The notes under the pieces: generated by a model
Seen by the model: only the letters and a program-made list of their open reading frames with translations
Databases searched by the model: none
Told to the model about the DNA's origin: nothing
In this document: positions 28,656-64,000 of the stretch, piece after piece
Numbering within the stretch: position 1 is the first letter of the stretch
Layout: each line of letters opens with the position of its first letter
NCBI GenBank assembly: GCA_043228905.1
Contig: JBHGNT010000007.1
Coordinates: forward strand, 11,470,001-11,534,000
Direction: 5' to 3'
DNA: 64,000 nucleotides
Source: Azolla caroliniana
Lineage: Eukaryota; Plantae; Polypodiophyta
Translations under genes and position numbers: made by a program

Positions 28656-28990
28656 GCCATATCACTCAAAAACCCAAACCCTAATTTTTCTTATCTAAGC
28701 CATATCACTCAAAAACCCAAACCCTAATTTTTCTTATCTAAGCCATATCACTCAAAAACCCAAACCCTAATTTTTCTTATTGAAGCCATATAACTAAAAA
28801 TCCCTAACCTCAATTTTCATTATCGAAGCCATATCACTAAAAGTCCCTAACCCTAATTTTCCTTATCAATTCCATATCACTAAAAATCTTTAACCCTAAT
28901 TTTTCTTATTGAAGCCATATCACTAAAATACCCTAACCCTAATTTTTCTTTTCCAAGCCATATCTCATAAACCCTAACCCAAATTTCTAA
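28656..28990. repeat. 43-bp minisatellite, about 8 units, each with a telomere-like ACCCTAA motif
   Basis: gccatatcactcaaaaacccaaaccctaatttttcttatctaa units start at 28656, 28699, 28742, 28785, 28828, 28871, 28914, 28957. Confidence 0.95.
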
Positions 28991-45488: not shown

Positions 45489-48400
45489 TGTCGAAGGAGC
45501 TAATGATGCGGCACCCGAATCGACACACAGAGACTTTCCGTCGTGGGAGCAATCGGCGAGCAGGGTATTATACTGCTTCGTGTCGTGTGTGGGCGAACAA
45601 CTATTGAGCTATGTTCAGGATGTAAAGACGCCGAAGGGTGCGTGGGAAAATCTGAAGAAGATCTTCGCTGCGAGCACCACAGCCAGGAAGCTTCAGCTCC
45701 GACAGGAGTTGAGCAACCTACGACAACACGACTTGTCGGTGGCAGACTATACCTCGAAGATCAAGGATATCTGCGACTCCTTCGCCTCCATAGAGGTGAA
45801 CATCGAGGAGAGCGAGATGGTCCAGATCTGTCTCGGAGGTTTGGCGTTGACGTTCGGAGCATTCCGAATGGCTGTGTGTACCCGGGAGAATACGCCGTCC
45901 TTTTTCGACTTACAGTCGATGCTCCTGGTAGAGGAGAACCACGCGGGTGCGTCTACAAGCACGCACACCGACAACAGAATGTTGTACACAAAGGGAGATA
46001 GGCCCCGTGGACGTGGAGGACGAGGCGAGTCGGCACGCAATGGAGGCAGCTGACGAGATCAAGAAAGAAGGCACCGAAGTGATGCCAACAACAACTCCGG
46101 ACCCTCTGGAAACAGGGGGAGTTGAAGCGATGAGAACCGGCAAGGGAAGTCCATCGCGGAGTGCTGGTACTGTGGCAAGAAAGGCCACAAGGAAAGTGAG
46201 TGTTGGAAGAAGCGCACCGATTCGGAGAGAACTGGTTCCGGGAACGGCTCCAAACATACCGACAAGGGAAATCGGCAGCGATTGCACTACGCCGAAGACT
46301 CCGGGAGAGCCGGAGAAGGGACTGCCTTCGTGACGAGACACGAAGCAAACTCAATGAAGCAGACCACCCCGATTTCGGACGAGGTGTGGTACGTAGACTC
46401 CGGCGCGTCAAACCACATGATGAGCCATAAGGAGTGGTTCTCGTACCTTGAAAAACCGATACAACCTGGAGTAGTTGCAACAGGGGACGACACTCCGCAT
46501 CCGATCGCGAATGTCGAAGAAGTTCCCCTTAGCCATGTCGGGCAGAAAGGGAAACTCATGAACGTGCTGCACGTTCCGACAATCACAAAAAACTTGGTCT
46601 CGGTCGGACAAATCGTCGACCAAGGGATGGAGGTTCGGTTTACACACCTCGGGTGCTTCATTGAGGAAGAAGGCCGTGTGATTGCGCAAGGGCGTAGAGA
46701 CGGGAGGATGTTCATCCTCGACTCCACTGACGGCGGCACCGCAATGTTTGCGAAGGGACAAAAGACCGAGTCGGACATCGACTTGTGGCACAAGCAGATA
46801 AGCCACGTCAACCACCAACGGCTTCAAGATCTGCAATCGAAACAGGTAGTGTTCGGATTGCCCAAATTTAGTGGCCGAAAGGCACAAATTTGTGAAGCCT
46901 GCCAGCTCGGGAAGCAACACCGACTTCCCTTCCCCAACGAGCGAAACCGGAGCCGGAACAAACTCGACCTTATACACTCTGATGTGTGGGGGCCAACACA
47001 AAACATTAGTCTTGGCGAGAGCCGATATTTCTTCTCCTTCATCGACGACCACACGCGGCACACGTGGATCTACCTCATTGAGAGGAAGAGCGAAGTCTTC
47101 GACTGTTTCCGGGACCTCAAAGGGTTCGTGGAAGCCGAAACAGGATGGAAGATCAAGTGCCTGCGGTCGGATGGCGGAAAAGAGTACTTTTCCGGTCAAT
47201 TCAACGGTTATCTACAACAAATGGGAATTCGGCGCGAATTCGGTTGTAGATACACGCCAGAGCAGAACGGCGTGGCCAAGAGGAAGAATCGGTCAGTTGT
47301 GGAATCAGCACGGGCAATGCTGGAGGAAAAGAGCTTGCCTAAGTTCTACTGGGCCGAGGCGGTAAGGACCGCGGTATACATCCAAAACCGGATCGTAGAC
47401 AAAGTGTCGGCGCACGAGGTGTATTTCGGAACGAAGCCGAACTTGCGACACTTGAGGGTGTTCGGTAGCATTGCGTATGTGCATATACCGAAGGAGAAAA
47501 GGAGGAAGCTGGACGCAAAGGCCGAGAAATGCATCTTGGTCGGTTACTCGGACGAGCAGAAGGGTTATAAGTGCTATATCCCTTGCACCAAACAAGCGCG
47601 TGTCAGCTGCGACGTGGTGTTTGACGAGTCCGCATCCTGGTACCTGCCCCCGACTACGAACCTCGACTCCAATCCGAGTTCTGACGATGAGGTCAGCGAG
47701 GCCGAGATGCCTCCGAATGAGCCCGAAATCGAGACCCGCGAAGAGAGTCCGATTTCACTCCGGTTAAGTAGACCGATTGGACGACTAAGTCGGTACGACC
47801 GGTTCGATGAAGAGTCGGCGAGTAGTGGAGACTTGGTCGTGCATTCCCCGCGTAGGAAGCCGAGGAGACGGCTTACGCGCAAAGAGAAAGGGAAGAAGAA
47901 GGTGTCGGATTCCGGCACGGATAGGAGCGAGTCCGACTCCGAGGGAACCAGTGACAAGTCTTTAAAGATGAAGACCGCGTCGACCGAGAAGGCCTCGACA
48001 TCGGCTAATGTGAGATTATGCCGATCTACCCGCCAGAAGAACCCAGTTGTGCGGTTCGGATACAACGAGTACATGGCACATCATTATGCATACATGACCC
48101 GTGTAGCGGAAGTGCGTGAGCCGGAGAGCTACGCAGAAGCGGCTAAAGATGCGAATTGGCGTGCCGCGATGGAGGAAGAGATGCACGCATTGGCGGAGAA
48201 CGAGACCTGGGACCTGGTTGACGCACCAACAAGGGTAAAACCGATCGGGTGTACGGGGGTGTACAAGGTCAAGTACAACATTGATGGCTCGGTCAACCGG
48301 TACAAGGCTCGGCTAGTGGCAAAGGGCTATGCGCAGAAACACGACATCGACTACGATGAGACGTTTGCGTCGGTCGCGAAAATGACGACCGTTCGTGTTT

Positions 48401-50177
48401 TGCTCGCAGTAGCCGCGGCCAAGGGGTGGCACCTATATCAAATGGATGTAAAGAATGCGTTCCTGCAAGGTGACCTTGAGGAACAAGTGTACATGGTACA
48501 ACCCCCCGGATTTCACTCCGGAATGAACTCCTCGGCAGTATGCCGACTGAATAAGTCCCTTTACGGACTGAAGCAAGCCCCGCGTGCCTGGAATGCGAAG
48601 ATCACGCAACAACTGCGTCGGATGGGTTTCGTCACGTCAAAGTCGGACTCTTCCCTGTTCATCCGGAAAGGTCGACTCGGCCCGTTTAGTATTCTACTAT
48701 ATGTCGATGACTTGGTCATCACCGGCGCCGACCTAGGTGAAATCGACTGCGTGAAGCTCCAGCTTGCGGCATCGTTCGACATGAAGAATCTGGGAGACCT
48801 TCATTACTTGGGATCGAAGTGATCCGTACCCCCGAAGGCATATTGATCAGCGAACGTCATTACGTGCTGAGTATGCTCTTTAAATTCGGGATGGCCGACT
48901 GTAAGTCCATCTCGACTCCTCTGGACAGAACCGTCAAGCTTCGTCCCGATACGGGAAAGGTATGCAACCCGACGAGGTTCCGACAAATTGTCGGAAGCCT
49001 TATATACTTGACCATCACCCGACCCGACCTCAGTTATCCGGTCGGGGTGATCAGTCAGTTCATGGCGCGACCTACCGAGGAGCACCTTCAGTGTGCGCAA
49101 CGCATACTTCGGTATGTCAACGGCACTAAGGACCGGGGACTGCTATATCGCACCGGTGCAACCACGCGGTTAGTCGGCTACACCGATGCTGATTGGGCTG
49201 GCAACGCCGCCGATCGCCGATCCACGTCTGGATACGCGTTCTCCCTCGGGAGTGCCGCGATCGCGTGGAGCAGTAAGAAGCAGCCGACAGTTGCATTGTC
49301 GAGCACCGAAGCTGAGTTCCGAGGAGCGGCTGTCGCGACATGCGAAGCCATATGGTTGAAGCGGCTACTTAAGGACCTGCGAGAGGAGGTGTCCGATCCA
49401 ACGACGATCTACTGCGACAACCTCAGCAACATCCAACTCGCGAAGAACCCCATCTTCCACGCACGGACCAAGCACATTGAGGTGCACTACCATTTCGTCC
49501 GTGAGCGTGTCCTTTCCCATGAAGTCGAACTTCAGTACGTTCCGACGGATCGGCAGACTGCCAACATCGTCACCAAGCCTCTTGGTCTGGACAAGTTGCG
49601 GCAATTCTCAGGTGCGCTCGGATTGCGTCACCTCGACGTGCCAAACTTGAGGGGGAGAACAGTCCCGAACGACCAAGCAAAGCAGCAGGAAAGGAGCGGA
49701 GACCGCGACACCGAGTCGGTTGTCGACTTCGACTTCGGATCGGCTGAAGAAGCCGAGGGCGGACCCACCGAAAAGTTCGGAAGCGGACAGAAGGGGAGCA
49801 ACCGAAGGAGAGAGCTGAAGCCAACCACGCATGAGGAGGATGACGCCATCGAGGGCGAGAAGACCGAAGACGAGTTAGAGACAGCCAACTCGGACAAGAG
49901 CGAAGACCGATCGGAGGTAGCCGAGTCGGTTCGGATGTTTGATTCAGACACGATGAAGCAACTGAGGCCCAAGCGGAAGAAAAGGCAGCAGAAGAAGCGT
50001 CAACACCGCAACAACAGAAGAGCTGATGAGGGCCACATGAGTAGACAAGCCGACCAGAAGGGTCAAAGCGCGCGGAGTCAAACAGGTCGAGGAGCGCGAG
50101 CGAGGCAAGAAGCCAGGAGGAACCGGTGTTTTGAAGATCCCGAAGAGCCTCAAGTTGAGCTTGAGGAGGAGTGTTGA
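45489..50177 (+). pseudogene. Bryco-like gag-pol remainder; in-frame stop at 46051-46053, frameshift near 48810, charged C-terminal extension
   Basis: ORFs 45463-46053, 46282-48822 (DSGAS, HSDVWGP, RSDGGKEY, LLYVDD), 48819-50177 ([19 protein letters not shown]). Confidence 0.95.
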
Positions 50178-51174
50178 GAGACAAGCTCAACATCGGCCGG
50201 ATCGGCTGAAGAAGCCAAGGACCGGATCGGTTGGGACTGATCGGTTAGGCCGAGTGCATAAACCGGGAGGCCGTTAGGGAAGATATTCCGTGAGGAATAT
50301 ATTTGGGAGTTAGTGTAGGAGCTCTTGATTAGGATTGAAGTACTGTCAGTACTTCGGTCAGTCCTTCTAGGACTTGTATAAAAGTGCTCACTGAGCACGT
50401 CTTATGTACAGATTGAGTATTATTGTTGAATATAGTTTTTTGAGTTTCTCTCTCTGTCTCTCCCGAGTATACTACGTAAGCTCAAGCTCTCCATTGAACC
50501 TGAGTTTCCTTCCTTCTATTCGGTCTTCATACTTGCTTCCGCACGTTACTTTCTACAGTATATAAGTTATTACGTGATTTCAATATGGAATGTTTTCCTT
50601 TTCGAGGAAAGGATCTTGGTGGCCGTCCTCACATTTTTGTGAGAATGGCGTTGTCACCATCCCTTTTTCAACAAATTTTTATTGTTGACATCCCTGTTGG
50701 TGACTTTGATTTCGTTACGTAATGAAACAATCTTAGCCACAATGGTGTTGAGAACGTAGGGTTTGACCCACTTGATGTGGCGTCACTCTTATGACACACA
50801 TATCCAAACACGTTCGCGTTCACAAGTGGAAGGATCGTGTATAAATGGAAGGATAAGGAAAATTTTGGTTGATTTTAGGGTTTTTTCAATGATTTTACAA
50901 AACACATTGATACCTGTATCATACATGTTCAAACATACTATGAAAAAGGTTAAAAATTCACTATTTCCGTGATTTAGAAGTAACTAATAAAAGAGGAATT
51001 TCAAAAAGTTACATTCTCAATTTATATCACAAACTTTACAACCAATGTTATTTTATATGAAACGATTTTTTAGAAATCATAAGAAATCAAAACACATGCT
51101 TTTATATTACTCGATTTGTTACAAGCGGAATGTATTTACACTTAATAGCCAAAAATACATTCATGATCATTCCT

Positions 51175-54100
51175 TTACGGAGAATCACTACTATAACTAA
51201 TATACAATGACGATTCCTCCTCGTCATCCTCGAATGTACCAATCAGTGCATTATCTTCGTCATAAACCAAATGGTTTGACTCTAGATTATATGTAGCAGA
51301 TCTCGTTTGCCTTTGACTCGAGCCACCTTGTAGACCTAGTAATTTTTCTTTTATTATATCTATTGTTGACTTCCTTAATCGTCTGGATTTTATAAGTGTG
51401 GATTGGTACACGATGATATCCACATCAGAGATATCAAGGGTAGAGGTGTTATGAATGTTTCGCTTCCTCTTCCTACCTGCCCTTCTTGTTGGGCATTCAA
51501 TCATCTCCAATGTATACTTACCTGTAAAAGCATTTGCACTTCTAGTGTTGTACCAATGAATGTTTATAGACTTGATAGTGTTTTCTATTTCATGCATTAG
51601 CACTTCTAGAATTTTACCAACCCAAAATTGGTGGCCATGTGAATTCTCATCAGCCAGCGTTGCAATCAACATCCCCGCCGTGAGCTCTTGCAAATTGCCT
51701 TGCCATCTAGCTTTGGTTGCTTTGGTCATCCTTGGTCCCACATAAATGTCTCTTTGTTGTGGATGGACCAACCTGTCATTTATCGCATTTGTTGGTTGCT
51801 TTCTATTTACACGATCGTGTTGCGACGACCATGTGAATGGCGTTTCCAAATTCCAATTATCACCAAATACACAATTGTCTATAATTTCTTTCTGATCACT
51901 ATAAAATACATCCCACCATGATGTGTCTTGTTGTGCGGCATATTTCTTGGTGGCCTCAATATGCTTTCTTTTTTCTTCTAAGGCTTGGAGCCATAACCGT
52001 TTTTGTTCTGATACCAAGTCACTGTGCAACTGTCCTTTCTTCTCAATTGGCATTTGCTTAGCTCCATGGACAATTGTACTCGGCATACAAAGTAATAATT
52101 GGCAACCACCTTCAGGTTCCCATGTTGTAGAAGATGAATATTGTTTAGCATACAAAAATGTAGTCTAACCACTTATTTCATTTTTCTTTATCATAAAAAT
52201 GTGATTGAAGCTTATATTTTTTAACTGGGCAAGCACTTTAACATTCCCAACACCCCCATCTAATATATATCTCTTAAAGTCATATACCTCCTTCAAGTGT
52301 AACACTTTTGGGCGTGGTGTATATGCATCACAAATGATATCAAATAGTTTAGGTAATGTGAAAGCATCATGCCGAGACAACTGTCTAGAGAATGTGCTAA
52401 ACATCTGATCTATATGATCATGTGTGTGGCCAACCAAAAGAAAATTGACTTTCACTTTCCTAAAAAATCCTTAGTTGACCAACATACTTAGATAGCCAAA
52501 CACAGTTGAATTTTTGTTCTCTCTAGCAGTATTGTCCAATTGAATGTAAAGAACAGGGGGGAAAGGTTGGCCCCAAGACATCAAAACTCGGTGAATCACT
52601 ATAACTGTTAGGTTAGGGTCATTGTGAACATTGGGGTATGTAATGAAGACGTGAGGTCCAATAGACCTATTATAAGCTAAGCATCCCACCAAGTGCATTT
52701 GAACAAGGCGCTCATCATTGACGTCTTTGGGGAGCCTCCGCATATGCGGCAAGCACGTCTTCTTCTGGTCCATGCCATCTATCATTAAGCACATGTATTG
52801 TTCGGGCCTCTTCAAACACTTCTCTCTATGATGCATCGCCTTCTTTCGTTCTAACGGTTGTGCCTCACGATGCTCTTGTAGTAACTTCTTACTCATATAT
52901 TTTTCCATTGATGTCTTTGCACCTTTAGCCAAACTTTTAAGATTTGCACAAATGCAGCAATACCCCATGCGTACTTTACATGGAATGATAACATTTGAAA
53001 ACTGAGCTCTCCATAATCTTGTGAATTGGCTATATGTGATAGACTTATTAAAGTCATATACCTCCTTCAAGTGTAACACTTTTGGGCGTGGTGTATATGC
53101 ATCACAAATGATATCAAATAGTTTAGGTAATGTGAAAGCATCATGCCGAGACAACTGTCTAGAGAATGTGCTAAACATCTGATCTATATGATCATGTGTG
53201 TGGCCAACCAAAAGAAAATTGACTTTCACTTTCCTAAAAAATCCTTAGTTGACCAACATACTTAGATAGCCAAACACAGTTGAATTTTTGTTCTCTCTAG
53301 CAGTATTGTCCAATTGAATGTAAAGAACAGGGGGGAAAGGTTGGCCCCAAGACATCAAAACTCGGTGAATCACTATAACTGTTAGGTTAGGGTCATTGTG
53401 AACATTGGGGTATGTAATGAAGACGTGAGGTCCAATAGACCTATTATAAGCTAAGCATCCCACCAAGTGCATTTGAACAAGGCGCTCATCATTGACGTCT
53501 TTGGGGAGCCTCCGCATATGCGGCAAGCACGTCTTCTTCTGGTCCATGCCATCTATCATTAAGCACATGTATTGTTCGGGCCTCTTCAAACACTTCTCTC
53601 TATGATGCATCGCCTTCTTTCGTTCTAACGGTTGTGCCTCACGATGCTCTTGTAGTAACTTCTTACTCATATATTTTTCCATTGATGTCTTTGCACCTTT
53701 AGCCAAACTTTTAAGATTTGCACAAATGCAGCAATACCCCATGCGTACTTTACATGGAATGATAACATTTGAAAACTGAGCTCTCCATAATCTTGTGAAT
53801 TGGCTATATGTGATAGACTTATTACGTGAGCCCACCATATTAGATCGATAGACATTATAAACTTCCCGACATGTGTAATTATCAGAAAGGTGCATCCTAC
53901 CTGTAGTGGGCATTACTTCACAATTTAACTGAAACTAAGTTTTCATCCAACCAATAGCATGTTTTCCAATTGCACCTTTCATACTTGGAACCTCTTTACA
54001 ATTGAGCATCTGATCCCCGCTAAGTAGACGTTGTTGTACTCTATGTAGCCGCATGTTACTAACACATAACGCAATTTTGAATGCAACTCTACATATATGT

Positions 54101-54750
54101 TGCGCATGGAAGATATAATACTCGAATGATACTTTGATCCCCGTACATTTGTCAGACACTAGTTGCATATGTGACCCAAGGTAAGTGTCTTGCTCATCAC
54201 CAGTCATCGAAAAATAGTATCGCCTTAATTCTCACAACTTTGATTTTCTAATCACAGACATACAACCACGAGCACAACATATTTTTTTGACATCAAATCC
54301 AATCTGTTTATCTGATGTCACCAAGTTAAATCTAGACAGATGAATTCTTCGTGGGATTCTTCTAATATGCATAGGGCTTCCAAATTTCTCTTCCTGCATA
54401 GAAGTTGGTGTAACCTTGTTACTATCCAATTCTTTGTTGTGACCATCGCCCATGATATTCGATGTTTCATTGGCACTACCTTCATTGTCCGTATCTTTAT
54501 TAATATCGTATTCTTCAATAGAGAACTCTTCACATGTGTCATTATTCACATTCGTTGTAGGTGAAGATGAGCTCAGACAATACTCTTCGATAGAATATGG
54601 TAAGTCTGTCAACAGACAATATTCTTCAATAGAATATGGTCAATCTGTTGACAAACAATATTCTTCGGTAGAAAATGAAGAGTCTGATGACAAACAATAT
54701 TCTCAGTCATATTTAATATAGAACTTCTCAGTCATTGGTTCATTAATGGC
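51175..54750 (-). pseudogene. DDE-type transposase pseudogene (Sola-like / DUF7869-like)
   Basis: ORFs 54232-54612, 53935-54207, 53245-53913, 52471-53229, 52165-52455, 51175-52155 share one frame, separated only by in-frame stops; motifs CCARGC, CCICANL, IDGMDQKKT, IQLDNTARENKN, FLLVGHTHDHIDQMFS; start uncertain. Confidence 0.8.
52274..53824. repeat. 774-bp in-frame tandem duplication inside the transposase
   Basis: 52274-53047 matches 53048-53821; TTA microhomology at the junction. Confidence 0.96.
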
Positions 54751-54870
54751 ACCATTTTAAATATAAGACTTTTCAATCATTGGTTCATTCATGCCCACAT
54801 CTTTAATACAAAGCAATTAAGAGTCATAAAAATGTTGATTTTAGTAATCAATCATTGGTTCATTCATGAA
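54575..54870. repeat. Degenerate 39-bp coding repeats (YSIEEYCL) and tcattggttcatt repeats at the transposase 5' end
   Basis: acaata(c/t)tcttc recurs every 39 bp from 54577; tcattggttcatt three times in 54730-54870. Confidence 0.75.
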
Positions 54871-55080
54871 CCTCTATCATTGTTTCCTTCATGACCTTCA
54901 AAGTCATTGTAAGTTATTTTGACTATAAAATATTCATCAATATGTTAGTTTGACTTTGTAATCATGAATGCAATCATAATTTACTCAAGTTAATGTGACT
55001 GTGGTTACTAACCAACTAACCTCATGCTTGCCAACCCTGGTTAAGCTGACTCTGGTTACTTTAACCACTGTGGTCAATCC

Positions 55081-55090
55081 CTATAAATAG
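55081..55090 (+). promoter_or_regulatory. TATA box candidate for the + strand companion gene
   Basis: CTATAAATAG about 190 bp upstream of ATG 55273. Confidence 0.55.
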
Positions 55091-55120
55091 GAAGACCTCG
55101 TCATATTTCACTCACACGAA

Positions 55121-55223
55121 ACACAAGAGCACACAAGAGCACACAAGAGCACACAAGAGTACACAGAGCACACAGAGCACACAGAGCACACAAAGCAAAC
55201 AGAGCAAACAGAGCACACAGAGC
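55121..55223. repeat. (ACACAAGAGC)n / (ACACAGAGC)n short tandem repeat in the putative 5' UTR
   Basis: About 11 units of 9-10 bp. Confidence 0.9.
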
Positions 55224-55272
55224 AGGAAGTACCATTGCGAGATCTCCGCCTAATAATCGACGAATATCAACC

Positions 55273-57660
55273 ATGTCTTCAAAGAAAATCGAGCGCCAGG
55301 GCTCCAGGTAAGCCTCTGGCACTGTGGACATTTTTGTAAATAAGTTTTAGCATCAGGAACTCGATACGGCGTATTGAGTTCTTGTATAAAACACAAAGAA
55401 TATGCATGAACTCGATACGGCGTATCTAGTTCTTGTGTGATGTTTAGGTTTTATACAGGAACTCGATACCGCATATCGAGTTCCTCTTCAAAGTTTTTGA
55501 TTTAAACAGGAACTCGATACGCCGTATCGAGTTCCTCTATTTCGTTTGCATTTTAAACAGGAACTCGATACGCCGTATCGAGTTCGTGTATAATATGTGT
55601 GTTTTATACAAGAACTTGATACGGCGTATCGAGTTCCTGTATTATGTTTGCGTTTTATACAGGAACTCGATACACTGTATCGAATTCCTCTATTTTGCTT
55701 GTGTTTTAAACAGGAACTCGAGGTGCCGTATCGAGTTCCTGTATAATATGTGTGTTTTATACAGGAACTCGATACGCTATCAAGTTGTTGTATTATGTTA
55801 GCGTTTTAAACAGGAACTCGATACGCCATATCAAGTTCCTGTTTAAAACACAAACGTTATACAGGAACTCGATACGGCGTATCGAGGTCCTATACATAGT
55901 TTATATTTTCCTATGTATAGTGTGCGTTTTAAACATTTATAGAGGAACTCGATATGCCATATCGAGTTCTTGTTTAAAACACAAACGTTATACAGGAACT
56001 CCATACGGCGTATCGAGGTCCTATACACAGTTTATATTTTCCTGTGTATAGTGTGTGTTTTAAACAGGAACTCGATACGCCGTATCGAGTTCCTATGTTA
56101 TGTAACTCTTTTACAGAGGAACTCGATACAGCGTATCGAGCTCCTGGATTATGTTTGTGTTTTATACAAGAACTCGATATGACGTATTGAGTCCCTGTAT
56201 AAAACAAGAACTTGAAAGAGGAATACTGTGTCTTTGGGGCAACAACTTAGTATTGTGTGAAAAGATATCAAACTTTCTATCAAAATCAGTCTTTTTTTAG
56301 GGTGATTTGCCTTATTTTGTAAAAAATAGGGGCCTTAATAATAGAGGTTTTATGACCTAGTATAGCTTAAAATAGTACAAAATAAGCCACAAATTACCTT
56401 TACGATACCAAATTCAAGTCTATCATATGCAAATTCTCTACAACATGGATATGGAATCAATAGAAGCCATACCTACCCTTCAAAACAATATATATCCTTG
56501 TATACTTATTAAGATATATATTTTCTAAGTTGAATATCCCTTACTACAATAGATTTCTGAATATAGGACTCCCATGTACACTCAATGCATGATTGATATT
56601 TATAGTTTACCACAAATCACCCACTACTTTATTTATTGATCTAATTATTTGTATTTTAATATACAATCTTAATCTACGTGACCACCTAACCTATGTTTGT
56701 GCATGTCCTTTCTTAAATAGGTCGTTTGAGAACTTGTCAGACCGACCTGGGAAGAAGATAAAGCTCTGCATACAGGGTTCTCCAATTGAAACATAGACCC
56801 TAATAGCTCCAGAGACCATGAAGAGAGGACAAAATCTCAATCACACATTGAGGTTAACCAGAAGAAAGTGTAGTAGCTACTGGAGGTGAAGACCTTCCTG
56901 ACCGTGATCTAACGGACAAGGAATGGTGTATGCAATACGTCGACACCGAGAAAAAGTCGTATTGTATACAACAAAGAAGAAGGGCGAGGGGCAGCTTGAA
57001 AATGAAACCCCATTTATGTATGGTCGTATTCTACGATTTGACTACGAAGATGTAGATTCGGCCAACATACTTGTAATGATAGAGTGCTCTAAAGGGGTAC
57101 GTAAAGTGTTCCTTTCTGAAGATCTTCTAGTAAAGGAATCTTGTGGGCCATAAGCTTTCAAAAAAGATCTTGAAAGCTCACAAAACCTTATTGTTACCTT
57201 GAGGCCTTATATACAAGGCCATGTAACTCTAAGGGAGCCATTGCCCTCCCCAATGAAGGCTAGAAAAAGGGCATCTAAAGTACAATCAAGACCACCAAAA
57301 AAGAAGACCACCAAAATGTCGGACTCTGACTCATCAAGTGAAAACGAAGATGACGACACTAAGGGGACACCAGGAGCTGATCTGGCATCGGGTTTGTTGT
57401 CATCCGAGAAGAATAAGATACGAAGAGAGTTAATGCAGCGTAAATTGGTCAGGAAAGGGCAAGTGTTTAATTTGCCTATAACACACATCCATCGTTCCCC
57501 AATTGATGAAAAAACAAGACGAAGACCACTGGAGATTAGAGAGCCACACCCCATGCATGTTCAAAATCTCAAGAAAAAAATGAAAATTAATCCTCATGCC
57601 ACTATGGTGTCTTTTATTGTTATGGTGGATCTTGAAGAATGTGAAACCATTGAAGATTTT
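55273..57660 (+). pseudogene. Spliced companion gene of the transposon (exon 55273-55307, intron 55308-56720, exon from 56721), decayed and interrupted by a copia at 57661; possible ParB-like domain start
   Basis: MSSKKIERQGS-AG|gtaagc...ttcttaaatag|G gives in-frame RSFENLSDRPGKKIK; further ORFs 56923-57153 and 57199-57663. Confidence 0.6.
55355..56196. repeat. Array of 16 palindromic 29-bp repeats (AGGAACTCGATAC-GSC-GTATCGAGTTCCT) with mostly 22-bp spacers, 51-bp period
   Basis: Unit starts 55355, 55406, 55457, 55508, 55559, 55610, 55661, 55712, 55763, 55812, 55863, 55943, 55994, 56066, 56117, 56168. Confidence 0.96.
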
Positions 57661-60600
57661 TGAAAACGATTACTTGCGGAAGCGTTAGAAAACAGAGGAA
57701 GCAAAGAATACACAGAGTACACGGGAGAGACAGAGAGAGCAGAACGTAAAAGCTATATTCAAAAAAACAATAAAAACATTATCTCTAGTTTCAACTGTGC
57801 TCAGTAGCACTATTCATACAAGTCCTCATGGGACTGATAGAAGTACCGCGTACTTCAATGCTCACACGAGTATCTGACACTTACTACGAGACTATAACTA
57901 CCTAGTAGTCTAAACTAATAGTAGGCTTCCGGTTACCGATTGGATCTGACTAACCGGCTCCCTAGCTCACCGGCTCGGTTGCTCACCAGCTTACCGATCC
58001 GTCTCGCTCACCGGCTCAGGCTTATCTAGCCTATCCGGCTCCAGTTGAGCTTGCTGCTCAACACTCCCCCTCAAGCTCAACTTGAGGTTGGATCCTAGTG
58101 TCAGCCTCTATGGCAGTCAGTTCTTCCAACCGACTTCTCCTGGCGTCACTCGGCTTGCTCGCGCTCCTCGTCCGGTCCGGTTCTGTTTGCCGCGACCCCT
58201 CTTGTTCTGCGCACCTCGACCTCCTCGGTCGGCTTGTCTGCTCAACAGGCCCAATTCAGCTCCCTTGCTGCTGTGACTTCGGCGCGTTCCGGTTCGTTGA
58301 TTCCATCGTGTTGGCGTCGACTTTCACTGCCTTCTCATCCTCTTGGCCTTGAATTGATCCGGTTCTTCCGAGTCTGTCTGTTGAACCGAACTAACTGTCT
58401 CTGATTCGTTCCAGCTCTTGTCCGAATCAGTTGCTCCCGATTCCTCTTTTGGTTCCAAGCCCTTCACCACATCGGACCATGTCTGGGTCTTGGCCTTCTT
58501 CCTTCGGTAGGCTTTGTCCTTCTTGACTCTGCCGTCGCTGCCTCTTGTTCCGACTTGTTCGGACGTGTCGACTTCCCTTCTCGACTAGGCTTCTTTCTTC
58601 TTCTTGACTCTCCCTTCGTCGGTTCTTCCCTCACCGGCGCAATCGGCAGTCTCTTTGCCTTTGCCCGTTCCGGTGTCTTTGCCCGTTCTCCCCCTCAAGT
58701 GTGGCACGTTGATATGATGAACACCAAGCATTTCGGTGGAGTGTTGCAACTTGTCCGAACCGAGTGGTTTGGTGAAGATGTTGGCAACTTGCCGATCCGT
58801 GTGAACATACCGAAGTTCGACCTCTCCGCTCAGGACACGCTCACGCACGAAGTGATAGTGCACTTCTATGTGCTTTGTGCGAGCATGGAATATGGGGTTC
58901 TTGGCGAGTTGCATGCTGCTTATGTTGTTGCAGTAGACCAGAATCGGGGTCGGTACCTCGATCCGTAGATCTTGCAGTAGTCGCCGAAGCCAAATGGCCT
59001 CATAGGTGGCAATGGTAGCGCCTCGATACTCAGCCTCAATGCTCGACAGAGCAACTGTTGGCTGCTTTTTGCTGCTCCACGCAACAACCGCGCTACCTAG
59101 GGAAAACATGTAACCAGAGGTTGATCGGCGATCTGATGCATCGCCGGCCCAGTCGGCATCTGTGTAACCGACCAGCTCTTCGGGTATACCGTTGTCGCGT
59201 TATTATGCGCGTGCGTGTGGAAGGGGCGGGACCACGGGGGTCTTGGACGAGGGAGAAGAGGAGAAAGGTTAAGACAACGAATGGAAGATTAGCTCATAGC
59301 TCGAGAAGAGAAGAGAACGAATATGACATTATGATAGAAGAAGACGAAGAAGATGGAGTCAAGATACTCAACAAGAAGTTCGATTAAGAAAACATAAATG
59401 CTTTACAATGGTGGCCGCCATGGCCGTACCAAACGACTATAAGAAAACCCTAAAGGAAAACCCAAGAAGAAACCCTAACCGAACCCTAACGCTCGACCTA
59501 TATGGTATACCTCGCACACTCAAAATAGGCAACCCCCACAATGGTGCCTTCTCTCTCCTTTTATAGCACAAGAAGGGAAGACCGTTTACAAAAGTGAGAC
59601 GAAAATATCCCCTTTCATTCAAAGGGGATATTTGCCTTGATTTGGGGGAGGGTGAGATTGATGGCCCCTTAACTCCCACCTCCTCACAAACAACTAGGTA
59701 CCTATGTACCGCATAGTACCTCTCTCTCTCTCTCTCTCTCGTGTGGATGTGCGTACAACCACATCACCTTTATACCTTTATTACTATTACAAATACATTA
59801 TGTACGTGTGTAACGTTGCACATCTCTCTTTGGCTCTCGTTGCTCGGGTTTCCGCTTGTGGACGAAAATCTTCACGACACCGTGCCGGTATAACAGGCCC
59901 CAGTCCTTCGTGCCGCTTACATATCGCAGTATCCGTTGCGCGCATTGAAGGTGCTCCACGTTCGGCTTCTGCATGAACTGACTTATCATTCCGACCGGAT
60001 AGCTGATGTCAGGTCGCGTGATAGTCAAGTAAATAAGACTCCCGACAATTGGTCGGAACTGTTTCTCGTTGCAAGCTGGTCCGGAGTTGGGACGAAGCTT
60101 CGGGTTCCGGTCCAAGGGTGTGGATATAGGTCGGCATTCTGTCATGCCGAACTTGTACAACATATTCAAGACGTGATGTCGTTGTGAGAGCAATACATCG
60201 TCGGGGGTTCGGATCACCTCGATCCCAAGAAAATAATGAAGGTTCCCCAGGTCCTTCATCTCAAATGCGTCCGACAACTGGGACTTGACGCGGTTGACTT
60301 CTGGAAGACCCGGTTCGGTGATGACTAAATCCTCAACATACAACAAGATACATACCGGACCGGTTGAGCCTTGCTGGATGAACAACGAAGAGTCGGACTT
60401 CGAGGCCGCAAATCCCATCTTACGCAACTGGTGCGTGATCTTCGCATTCAAAGCTCGAGGGGTTTGCTTCAGGCCGTACAACGACTTCTTTAGTCGGCAT
60501 ACCGCCGACTTGTTCATCTCCGATTGAAAACCGAGGGGCTGAGTCATAAAGACTTCTTCTTCAAGATCACCCTGAAGAAACACATTCTTCACATCCATCT

Positions 60601-63600
60601 GGTGAAGAAGCCACCCCCTTGCAACAGCAATCGCTAGCACCACATGAACCTTCGTCATCTTGGCTACAGGAGCGAAGGTCTCGTCGTAGTCGATTTCGTG
60701 GGTTTGCTCGTATCCCTTCACCACTAACCGGGCCTTGTAGTGGTTAACTGAACCGTCGGCGTTGTGCTTTACCTTGTACACCCACTTGCATCTTATCGGT
60801 TTACAGTGACGAGGAGGGTCAACTAGGTCCCATGTCTCGTTGACATTAAGTGCCCACATTTCTTCCTCCATAGCGGCACGCCAATTTGCGTCTTTTGCCG
60901 CTTCTGCATAGCTCTCTGGCTCACGTACTTCCACCACTTTAGTCATGTACGCATAGTGATGCACCATGTACTCATTGTACCCGTACCGCATGACGGGATC
61001 CTTCTGGCAGGTGGACCGGCGTAACTCACCGTTACCCGGTTTAAGGGCTTTCTTGGCCGGTTCGGTCTTCGTTGCCGAAGATACACCTTTCTCCTTGCCG
61101 GAGTTGGATGCACACTGATCCAACTCATCGTTGCCGGTTTCGAATGCCGACATCTTTTTCTTCCCTTTCTCTTTGCACGTGAAACGTCTCCTCGGTTCCT
61201 TGCGCGGGGAGAGCACGGTAGAGTCTCCACTACTCGCCGGTTCCTCATCGGATTGGTCAGATTGATTCAGTCTCTCGTTCGGCCCGCTCAACCGAAACGA
61301 TTCCGGACTCTCATCCTGAGTCCACGCTTCATCATCATCTACCTGGGCCGGTTCAGGCTCACTAGCCTCATCCTCCGGCATCGGGTCGGATTCGGAAGTC
61401 GGAGCCGGTAAGGAGTACCATGATGCCAATTCATCGAACTCGACATCTCGACTAACTCGGACCTGCTTTATCCGGGGGTTATAACACTTATAACCCTTTT
61501 TCTCTTGAGCATAGCCGATTAGGATGCATTTTTCCGATTTTGCATCTAGCTTCCTCCGCTTCTCATCCGGTACATGCACATATGCAATGCTACCGAAGAT
61601 GTTAAGGTGTCTCAAATTCGGCTTGTGCCCGAAATACAGCTCGTGAGCTGACACCTTCTCACCGATCCGGTTTTGGATGTAGACAGTCGTTCGAACTGCC
61701 TCCGCCCAGTACAATTTGGGCATGCTCTTCTCCTCCAGCATTGCCCTTGCCGCATCAATAAGCGATCAGTTCTTCCTTTCGGCAACACCATTCTGTTGCG
61801 GTGTGTATCTATAGCTGAACTCTCGCCGAATTCCCTTTTGTTGTAGATAACTGTTGAATTGGCCGGAAAAGTATTCTTTTTCGCCATCCGACCGCAGGCA
61901 TTTGATCTTCCTCTCCGATTCCCGTTCCACCATGCTTTGGACACTCCGGAAACACTCGAAGACTTCACTCTTCCGCTCAATGAGGTAGATCCATGTGTGC
62001 CGCATATAGTCGTCGATGAAGGAGACGAAATATCGACTCCCGCCAAGACTAACATTCTATGCCTGATGAAGGTCGAGCTTGTTACGGCTCCGGTTACGTT
62101 CGTTGGGGAATGGAAGCCGGTGTTGCTTCCCGAGTTGACAGGCTTCACATACTTGGGCCTTCCGGCTGCTGAACTTCGGCAAACCGAAAACAACTTGTTT
62201 CGCTTGCAGGTCTTGAAGCCTCCGGTAATTGACGTGGCCTATCTGCTTGTGCCATAGGTTGATGTCTGATTCGACATTCTGTCCATTTGCAAACAGAGCG
62301 GTGCCGACATCATTGGTGCCGAGGATAAACATCCTCTCGTCTCTGCGCCCTTGCGCAATAATCTGGCCCTCTTCCTCGATGAAGCACCCGAGGTGCGTAA
62401 ACCGCACCTGCATCCCTTGGTCAACGATCTATCTGACTGACACCAGGTTCTTCGTGATTGTCAGAATATGTAATACGTTCATCAGCTTCCCCTTCTGTCT
62501 GACGTGGCTCAAAGGGACTTCTCTGACGTGCACGATTGGGTGAGGAGTGTCGTCTCCGGTTTCGACTACTCCTAGTTGATCCGGTTTTTCCAAAAAGGAG
62601 AACCACTCTTTGTGGCTCGTCATGTGGTTCGACACACCGGAATCAACATACCACACTTTCTCCGATTTGAAAGTGGTCTTCTTCATCGAGTTCGCCTCGT
62701 GCTTCATCACCAAGGCTGGCCCGTTACTGTTCTTGGATACTCCTGATCCCTTCACGTAGTGCGAGCTTTGCTGGCCATCCTTGCCGGCCTTGCCGGATCC
62801 GGATTTGTCCGAATCGGCGCGTTTTCTCCAACACTCGCTTTCTCTGTGGCCCTTTTTGCCACAGTACCAGCATTCCGTTGCAGTCTTCTCTTGCCATCTT
62901 CCGATGCCACCATGACTCCCCCTACTCCCGGAGGGTCTGGAACTGTTGTCAGCACGTTCTCTGAGCCTTTGTTCCTGGTCTTGCTGGCCGCCTCCATTGC
63001 GTGCCGACCCGCCTCGTCCACCACGCCCACGGGACCGATCCGCTTCCGTGTACAGCATCCGGTTGTCAATGGGTGCGCTAGTTGACACACCGGCGTGGTT
63101 CTCCTCTACAAGGAGCATCGACTATAAGTCGAAAAACGACGGCGTATTCTCCCTTGTACATACCGCCATTCGGAACGCTCTGAACTTAGACGCCAGGCCC
63201 CCAAGACAGACCTGTACCATCTCGTCTTCCTCTACGGTAACGTTGATAGAGGCAAGCGAGTCACATATCTCTTTGATCCGGGCCGTGTAATCTGCCACCG
63301 ACATGTCCTTCTGTTGGACATTGCTCAACTACTGTCGGAGTTGCAACTTCCGGGATGTAGTACTCGTGGCGAAAACCTTCTTCAGGTTTCCCCAAGCCTC
63401 CTTCGGCGTCTTGGCGTCTTGGATGTGGCTCAGCAGTTGGTCTCCGACACTGGACGCGTAGCAGTACATCACTCTGCTTGCCGATTGTTCCCACACTGGG
63501 AAATCCTTATGTGTTGCATCAGGTGCTATTTCGTTGGCTCCTTCGACGAAACTCTAGTAGCCATGCCCAAGCAGGTACTGGTGCATCTTGTACAACCAAG

Positions 63601-64000
63601 ATGCGTAGTTGGATCTGTCGAGTTTCTCCACAAGGAGTGAGCTAGCCATTCCTCTATCCATCACTTCTCTGTCTGTTGTTCTTACGACCTGTTAGGGTTT
63701 GCTTTCAAGCGTTTGTCGGCTACAGAGGTTCTCAACCCTCGCGCTCTGATACCATGAAAATGATTACTTGTGGAAGCGTTAGAAAACAGAGGAAGCAGAG
63801 AATACACAAAGTACACAGGAGAGACAGAGAGAGCAGAACGTAAACACTATATTCAAAAAAACAATTAAAACATTCTCTCTACTTACAACTGTGCTCAGTA
63901 GCACTATTCATACAAGTCCTCGTGGGACTAACAGAAGTACCGCGTACTTCAATGCTCACACGAGTATCTGACAATTACTACGAGACTATAACTACCTAGT
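57661..64000 (-). mobile_element. Near-complete degenerate Bryco-like copia (5' LTR runs off the window)
   Basis: 3' LTR 57661-58063, PPT 58064-58075, PBS 63743-63754, 5' LTR from 63755; gag start 63661; ORFs 62429-63118, 59798-61741, 58585-59109. Confidence 0.95.
59193..59879 (-). mobile_element. Solo LTR (687 bp) inserted between RT and RNase H of the copia
   Basis: TGTCG..CGACA termini, 4-bp TSD CCGT (59189-59192, 59880-59883); removing it restores [15 protein letters not shown]. Confidence 0.93.

Follow-up and report, generated by a model that had tools for sequence, protein, structure and literature searches.

We analyzed a 64,000-nt stretch of the Azolla caroliniana genome (assembly GCA_043228905.1, contig JBHGNT010000007.1, positions 11,470,001 to 11,534,000 of the forward strand), hereafter called the window. 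In the window lies a dead copy of a Sola1-like cut-and-paste DNA transposon of ~9 kb, which belongs to a many-copy family. In intact relatives, a companion gene opposite the transposase has a predicted protein product that joins a ParB-like part to a beta-class N6/N4 DNA methyltransferase, and a palindrome array lies in the first intron of this gene. We lean towards the reading that this protein binds the intron-1 array and methylates the element's own DNA, likely at N6 of adenine. An earlier note on the window had already called a Sola-like two-gene DNA transposon here, and the terminal inverted repeats (TIRs), the 4-bp target-site duplication (TSD), the DUF7869 matches and the linked companion gene bear this out. 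The features are listed in Table 1; positions above 64000 are extended positions, counted on beyond the window.

The transposon and its family

The window copy spans 50807 to extended position 66073 between TIRs beginning with AACACG, with TCCA as the TSD. Its transposase occupies a single minus-strand frame, which runs from 54703 down to a stop codon at 51175-51177 and contains 6 in-frame stops. Three segments of this frame matched DUF7869 with E values of 1e-19 to 1e-43, in agreement with the earlier description of a decayed Sola/DUF7869-type transposase. Sola transposases are encoded by a single open reading frame and have an RNase H-like fold with an acidic DDD triad; here, three conserved aspartate motifs were picked out by eye on the sequence alone. 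The C-terminal region (51250-51700, minus strand) gave no Pfam match, and by eye we take it to resemble a BAH/Tudor-type beta-barrel. Two features had previously been missed. A 777-nt duplicate (52274-53050 identical to 53048-53824) reflects either a very recent event or an assembly artefact, and a ~358-bp deletion beyond 54703 took out the start codon. A 39-bp tandem repeat at 54577-54703 encodes an acidic 13-residue repeat at the transposase N-terminus.

The companion gene of the window copy is likewise broken. Exon 2 carries frameshifts and stops, with a final open stretch at 57154-57660, and the gene is then split by a copia long terminal repeat (LTR) retrotransposon, in whose LTRs 378 of 403 aligned bases were identical. 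Beyond the copia follow the remainder of exon 2, a 1447-bp (1.45-kb) deletion that removed the methyltransferase exons, and the right TIR. The ATTTT target duplication foreseen for the copia was present; its far LTR, foreseen near 64157, ended at extended position 64173. When the copia was spliced out, the GGxH motif that had been sought appeared as GGSH right behind it, where the frame resumes.

Table 1. Features of the transposon copy in the window (window positions).
Feature	Position	Strand	Remarks
4-bp TSD (TCCA)	50803..50806	+	second copy after right end, extended position 66073, beyond window
Left TIR	50807..50835	+	begins AACACG; right TIR ends G000:C7:11536073
Decayed Sola-like DUF7869 transposase	51175..54703	-	~926 aa in family consensus; 6 in-frame stops; start codon deleted
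Exact in-frame tandem duplication, period 774	52274..53824	.	covers catalytic core; absent from sibling copies
TATA box (predicted)	55082..55089	+	also in family B
Predicted exon 1	55273..55307	+	35 nt; ATG at 55273
Predicted intron 1	55308..56720	+	GT-AG, phase 2; same position in families A and B
Array of 16 palindromes	55357..56194	.	core CGATRC-N3-GYATCG; mostly 51-bp period; likely companion-protein binding sites
Exon 2, 5' part, broken	56721..57660	+	ParB/Srx domain starts near 57445; copia cuts just before GGSH motif
Copia LTR retrotransposon in exon 2 of companion gene	57661..64000	-	far end at extended position 64173; ATTTT TSD

Searches with parts of the element returned many further copies. 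Exon 2 gave 643 candidates, and 40 of the 40 scored matched at 86-100%, while a downstream exon gave 1164 candidates, with all 150 scored at 90% or above. The exact TIR 20-mer occurred 673 times, as compared with 0 for the control. TIRs of the form AACAC...GTGTT were found in families A, B and C; their likeness to those of Ectocarpus Sola1-1 is confined to the first three bases. Of the 21 family A copies that retain both ends, 18 have an exact 4-bp TSD and 3 have one that is off by one base. Furthermore, in 40 copies picked by their methyltransferase exon (40 of the top 42 rows, parts being scored within 9.6 kb), the ParB exon was found in 40/40, at least three array units in 36/40 and the transposase core in 33/40; parts missing from these copies may have been displaced by insertions. 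The 14 two-gene elements were all divergent, and transposase and ParB trees gave the same three clades (Mantel rho 0.67, 0/5000 permutations), each with its own variant of the palindromic site. From the 14 metagenome loci with a transposase match, the trees left out two fragments (L171 and L196) and L161, whose two genes lie on one strand. Thus, ends and TSD were defined from other copies, and the three parts co-occurred stably, as the earlier note had supposed.

The state of the copies differed between families. Six of nine young family B copies were taken, which were 98-99.9% alike. The companion gene was open, with canonical splice sites, in 4 of the 6, and in 3 of those 4 the transposase frame was open as well (923 codons; DUF7869 E 9.5e-50). 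One intact family B copy lies at G000:C1:22634422-22643394. Among 19 full-ended family A copies, the companion gene was open in 1 of the 12 that could be cut, the full transposase frame was present in 1/19, and both were open in none. Homologues were named from Ceratopteris (70%), Calypogeia, Riccia, Chara and Ginkgo, and the ParB-methyltransferase fusion recurs in those from Chara, Ginkgo and Riccia. As judged by the tags alone, the transposase and ParB-methylase homologues of Riccia sorocarpa lie at consecutive locus tags (R1sor_010795 and R1sor_010796).

Several further observations concern the copies and their surroundings. At L254/L255 (G000:C2:19313395-19343738), head-to-tail 1083-bp units come after a near-intact family B element; each unit holds the right TIR and the last exon, and 28 TIR matches are listed. 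The flanks of another family B copy (L221/L222, C11) read as a 5-bp rather than a 4-bp duplication. Another copy of the window's transposon family (L050, G000:C7:11460001-11470000) ends ~1.2 kb before the window start. Within the window, a second copia-like element lies 5' of the transposon in opposite orientation to the first (48016-49660 against 58685-61024, 72-79% alike), and a 43-bp tandem repeat of 7.7 copies at 28656-28986 includes a telomere-like CCCTAACCCTAA stretch.

The companion protein

The divergent, spliced plus-strand gene described by the earlier note, with its TATA box, ATG and frame-keeping predicted GT-AG intron, was recovered with all of these parts. Predicted splice sites divide the gene into six exons, with five GT-AG introns and 969-974 codons, in family B as well as in the family A consensus, and all five intron positions are common to the two families despite saturated synonymous divergence. 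The proportion of synonymous differences (pS) between A and B was 0.87-0.95, as compared with non-synonymous proportions (pN) of 0.16 for the ParB part, 0.13 for the helical domain and 0.24 for the methyltransferase. Because pN of 0.13-0.24 stands against a saturated pS, these substitution patterns show that the companion gene has been under purifying selection. No source of RNA was listed for a family B copy, and the intron-1 junction was sought in contigs of two presumed RNA runs and was not found, which speaks neither for nor against expression. In the predicted 5' untranslated region (55121-55224), a 9-10-bp ACACAGAGC repeat differs in length from copy to copy and is loosely similar to part of the copia LTR.

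Next, the fold of the N-terminal part was predicted from a 71-row alignment, giving a model with a mean confidence (pLDDT) of 90.6. Foldseek matched this model best to Noc/ParB (E 5.6e-5), with 11 matches at E<=0.001, the 10 shown being all ParB/Noc. VIA structure comparison gave PadC, KorB and sulfiredoxin at Z 10.1-8.2, with PadC at Z 10.1 and a root-mean-square deviation (rmsd) of 2.6 over 96 residues. A previous fold from a shallow alignment had reached pLDDT 58 and a best Foldseek E of 0.11, with the top rows still ParB. Searches restricted to sequence gave no Pfam match for ParB, a best PDB phmmer hit to sulfiredoxin at E 1.2 and an empty profile search; no longer homologues were found with the entire exon as query, and the homodimer prediction for the ParB part gave no answer (score 0.01). 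The model therefore bears out the earlier ParB/Srx call, and the N-terminal part of the companion protein is predicted to adopt the ParB/Srx fold. As a lead only, ESM Atlas features tie the ParB part at L026:2241-3140 to fungal DUF3723 clusters (score 0.96), suggesting related fungal accessory proteins.

The earlier note had also suggested a parS-like cis system; in a true system of this kind, the protein would be a CTP-dependent clamp that loads at the palindromes and slides along the element with the methyltransferase. The top structural matches are indeed ParB, Noc, PadC and KorB, the sites are palindromic, and most rows retain the Box I arginine (R in 36 of the 42 rows listed). However, the arginine of the ParB GxxR motif is replaced: across the 71 rows, this position holds S in 39, G in 6, T in 5, C in 4 and L in 2, with R outside the five commonest residues, and the family motif reads GGxH[ST]xxA. 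Since the GxxR arginine is absent, the clamp reading is unsupported, and together with the missing ParB Pfam match this renders a true parS/ParB system improbable.

Four helices that follow the ParB/Srx domain align along ParB/Spo0J (1vz0: Z 4.2, rmsd 5.8, 130 aligned), so that the helical domain is predicted to be positioned like the helix-turn-helix (HTH) of ParB. The putative recognition helix, placed like that of ParB, is nearly invariant across the 71 loci. In the C-terminal exons, N6_N4_Mtase (PF01555) matched with E 3.7e-7, above the curated cut-off, and 6 of 29 scanned homologues likewise passed that cut-off. The motifs stand in the order IV-X-I (DIPY, NPYQKP, DLFSGTG), motif IV being DIPY in 45 of 48 matches. 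The best solved relatives are mostly N6-adenine enzymes, including M.RsrI, M.MboIIA, CcrM and DpnA-type enzymes. N6-methyladenine (6mA) is a more likely product than N4-methylcytosine (4mC). The earlier suggestion of a DNA-modifying accessory protein is in keeping with this predicted domain. The more specific expectation of a methyltransferase downstream held for the relatives; in the window copy the domain is deleted, so that splicing out the copia would miss it.

The palindrome array, gene-less derivatives and a proposed mechanism

The array in predicted intron 1 consists of 15 pattern units and one with a 2-bp deletion at 55765, which together make up the 16 units reported previously, and no further match to the pattern was found elsewhere in the 64-kb window. 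Units are spaced near 51 or 41 bp. In families B and C, the arrays lie in the same intron with different flanks and the same core, CGATRC-N3-GYATCG. From metagenomes, 80 of 150 loci found were kept; of the 29 with at least 1.4 kb upstream, 26 had the site, and its density was 174 in 44 kb of intron zone as compared with 16 in 288 kb elsewhere. Across 82 distinct 25-mers, the flanks vary in step on both arms, and the central three bases are free. Paired sites numbered 1711 in the genome and 0 for the control. These features bear on whether chance placed a captured gene and a neutral minisatellite next to a transposase. The array does vary from 0 to 16 units among copies, as a minisatellite might. 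Nevertheless, such a juxtaposition is very improbable, because the parts are linked in the 40 copies and 18 of 21 copies have an exact TSD. The TIRs and TSDs that copies have in common, the agreement of the two trees, and an intron location and a core that stayed unchanged while synonymous sites diverged to saturation point the same way; for the gene pair, the linkage counts and tree agreement already refute a chance origin.

We then considered derivatives of the element that lack the genes. Nine array loci had no known gene nearby, and 3 of these were short TIR-bounded elements missing most of both genes. In a search by TIR only, the first 100 of 422 B/C-type matches contained 4 pairs under 6 kb, all four with sites, and the first 100 of 673 A-type matches contained no pair under 6 kb. 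One derivative family consists of the family C left end, the array region and the right end, indicating that separate deletions removed both genes and spared the middle. In the first derivative family, 7 copies share the junction, and 6 of the 7 have sites. The second, of 4 kb, gave at least 40 matches; 12 of 12 copies checked hold 5-8 sites, and 9 copies show both TIRs and their own exact TSD. Therefore, the array was kept in 18 of 19 checked copies over two amplified gene-less families with distinct TSDs, these 19 copies standing for two events, not nineteen. Such retention points to a requirement for the array in cis.

The same retention enters the case for an alternative that we regard as unlikely, in which the array is a protein-binding operator or a transposition enhancer, and methylation is secondary or aimed at host DNA, RNA or rival elements. 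In its variants, the array would autoregulate the two divergent genes or pair the ends, as subterminal repeats do in CACTA elements. An operator or enhancer would suit the position of the array, which lies between the genes and shortly after the companion ATG, its survival in gene-less derivatives and the heavy 5-methylcytosine (5mC) decay that persists in the elements. Against it stand the fusion of a methyltransferase to the binding domain, with purifying selection and intact motifs, and the recurrence of that fusion in the homologues from Chara, Ginkgo and Riccia. Alternatively, the palindromes might act as RNA hairpins or DNA cruciforms, serving as a source or decoy of small RNA or in splicing control, rather than as protein sites. 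As RNA, this part of the intron has a very stable fold (z -33.5), and the co-varying flanks keep the symmetry; however, any palindrome array would fold. Six bases of core are conserved, whereas the three in the center vary freely and often stay unpaired, the spacing is regular, and derivatives without an intact gene retain the array, all of which makes this alternative quite improbable.

In the mechanism that we favor by a modest lean, namely binding of the array and methylation of the element's DNA, a dimer of the companion protein would read the two CGATRC half-sites, and the ~51-bp spacing, about five helical turns, would put the sites on one face of the DNA. The array would then address the fused methyltransferase to any array-bearing element, whether in cis or in trans. 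Either the bound protein or the mark may keep the element transposition-competent in the face of host 5mC silencing, a role like that of VANC in VANDAL elements. Binding, dimerisation, methylation, the modified base and the benefit are all points that we infer. As a more tentative extension, seed-free land plants and Ginkgo may harbor transposons with such an address-and-write system, in which mobility would need three parts in cis, the two ends and the array; on this account, the derivatives drop both genes yet keep the array because it is needed in cis.

Several results weigh against this mechanism. Family A carries a CG/CHG transition load of 0.05-0.09 in coding regions and tail as compared with ~0.01 at other sites, and this full load of host 5mC indicates that most family A copies were unprotected. 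One derivative (L259) and one full-ended autonomous-type copy (L064) have no array, the four short elements picked by their TIRs belong to two families only, and the array region kept by derivatives also includes promoter-side DNA. The invariance of the core, unlike its location, is partly by construction, as the site pattern was derived from the counted loci. The helical domain alone gave no clear HTH match (best VIA Z 4.4), and the N6_N4_Mtase domain has switched repeatedly between 6mA and 4mC (PMC8885841). At L161:4033-5946, the ParB gene is followed downstream by a transposase in the same orientation, where the two genes usually diverge; this transposase belongs either to a neighbouring element or to another arrangement. 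One weak hint speaks for the mechanism: decay at half-site CpGs was 16/572 (0.028), as compared with 0.051 for TCGA elsewhere and 52/572 (0.091) for inner CpGs, in counts that are not independent, since the copies share ancestry. This lower decay fits occupancy, a blocking mark or selection.

Relation to known systems

We view the window family as a land-plant member of a transposon kind recently described in algae, for which a self-binding and self-modifying design has already been proposed. In Ectocarpus, Sola1-1_Ec32 carries a ParB-like gene with an N4/N6 methyltransferase opposite its transposase, and its authors propose self-binding and self-modification (PMC12477816). It has a 4-bp TSD, ends of AACCG-CGGTT and a moss Sola1 as best match, while Sola2-1 has GGCGG (PMC12477816). 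The window family shares with it the gene pair in opposite orientation within one TIR pair, the 4-bp TSD and ends that start with AAC. Compared by description, the Ectocarpus element has 21.5 kb, 282-bp TIRs and 1104 aa, in contrast to ~9 kb, ~30-bp TIRs and 969-974 aa here; moreover, the accessible text of PMC12477816 mentions no array or binding site, whereas the fern family has an array. Sola1 has been listed for moss (PMC9033089), Sola elements are abundant in Azolla (PMC6786969), a Sola1 hidden Markov model was published in the supplement of PMC5751038, and ParB-linked methylases of algae and phages are mentioned in PMC4738411, whose accessible text is silent on this element. A land-plant description of a ParB-methyltransferase Sola1 was not found in the literature searched, a search that left most subscription papers and Repbase reports outside.

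Two algal papers of 2025 proposed, without test, that ParB-like/methylase proteins bind and modify their own elements. The present family makes this idea testable: a defined candidate site has been conserved between clades, both genes are open in three young copies, and derivatives that have lost the genes still carry the sites. If the idea is true, a plant transposon writes a DNA mark that its host does not normally use, which would be a new escape route from silencing; among land plants, the protein would be the first 6mA/4mC writer that is encoded by a transposon and has a defined target, and it could provide a site-directed 6mA/4mC writer for plants.

A comparable design occurs in the Plavaka (EnSpm) elements of the red alga Bostrychia, where the ParB-like gene of PAG2/PAG3 lies beside tandem inverted-repeat arrays that are proposed binding sites (bioRxiv 10.1101/2025.02.11.637652). 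The ParB-like accessory gene, the adjoining repeat arrays and an N6 methylase within the same element are similar to those of the window family. Plavaka differs in that its transposase is of another superfamily, its ParB is fused to a 2-oxoglutarate oxygenase, and its methylase is a separate gene with a SET domain. Beta-class amino-methyltransferases of bacterial type are also known in eukaryotes as Marchantia DN4MT1 and rotifer N4CMT, host genes without ParB that have SPPY and write 4mC (bioRxiv 10.1101/2021.02.12.428880, PMC8885841). The companion family shares this enzyme class and has DIPY instead of SPPY; a link to DN4MT1 was rejected on motif and architecture.

With bacterial ParB/parS, Noc, PadC and KorB, the companion protein shares a predicted ParB/Srx fold followed by a helical domain, as well as clustered palindromic sites. 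It is unlike them in lacking the GxxR arginine and in carrying a C-terminal methyltransferase, and the element has no ParA gene. Finally, VANC of the Arabidopsis VANDAL elements was shown experimentally to recognize short motifs in tandem repeats within the non-coding parts of its own family (PMC5735166). VANC targets non-palindromic motifs of 8-9 bp and causes loss of 5mC, whereas the family described here combines, by its sequence, a palindrome with a predicted methyl writer.

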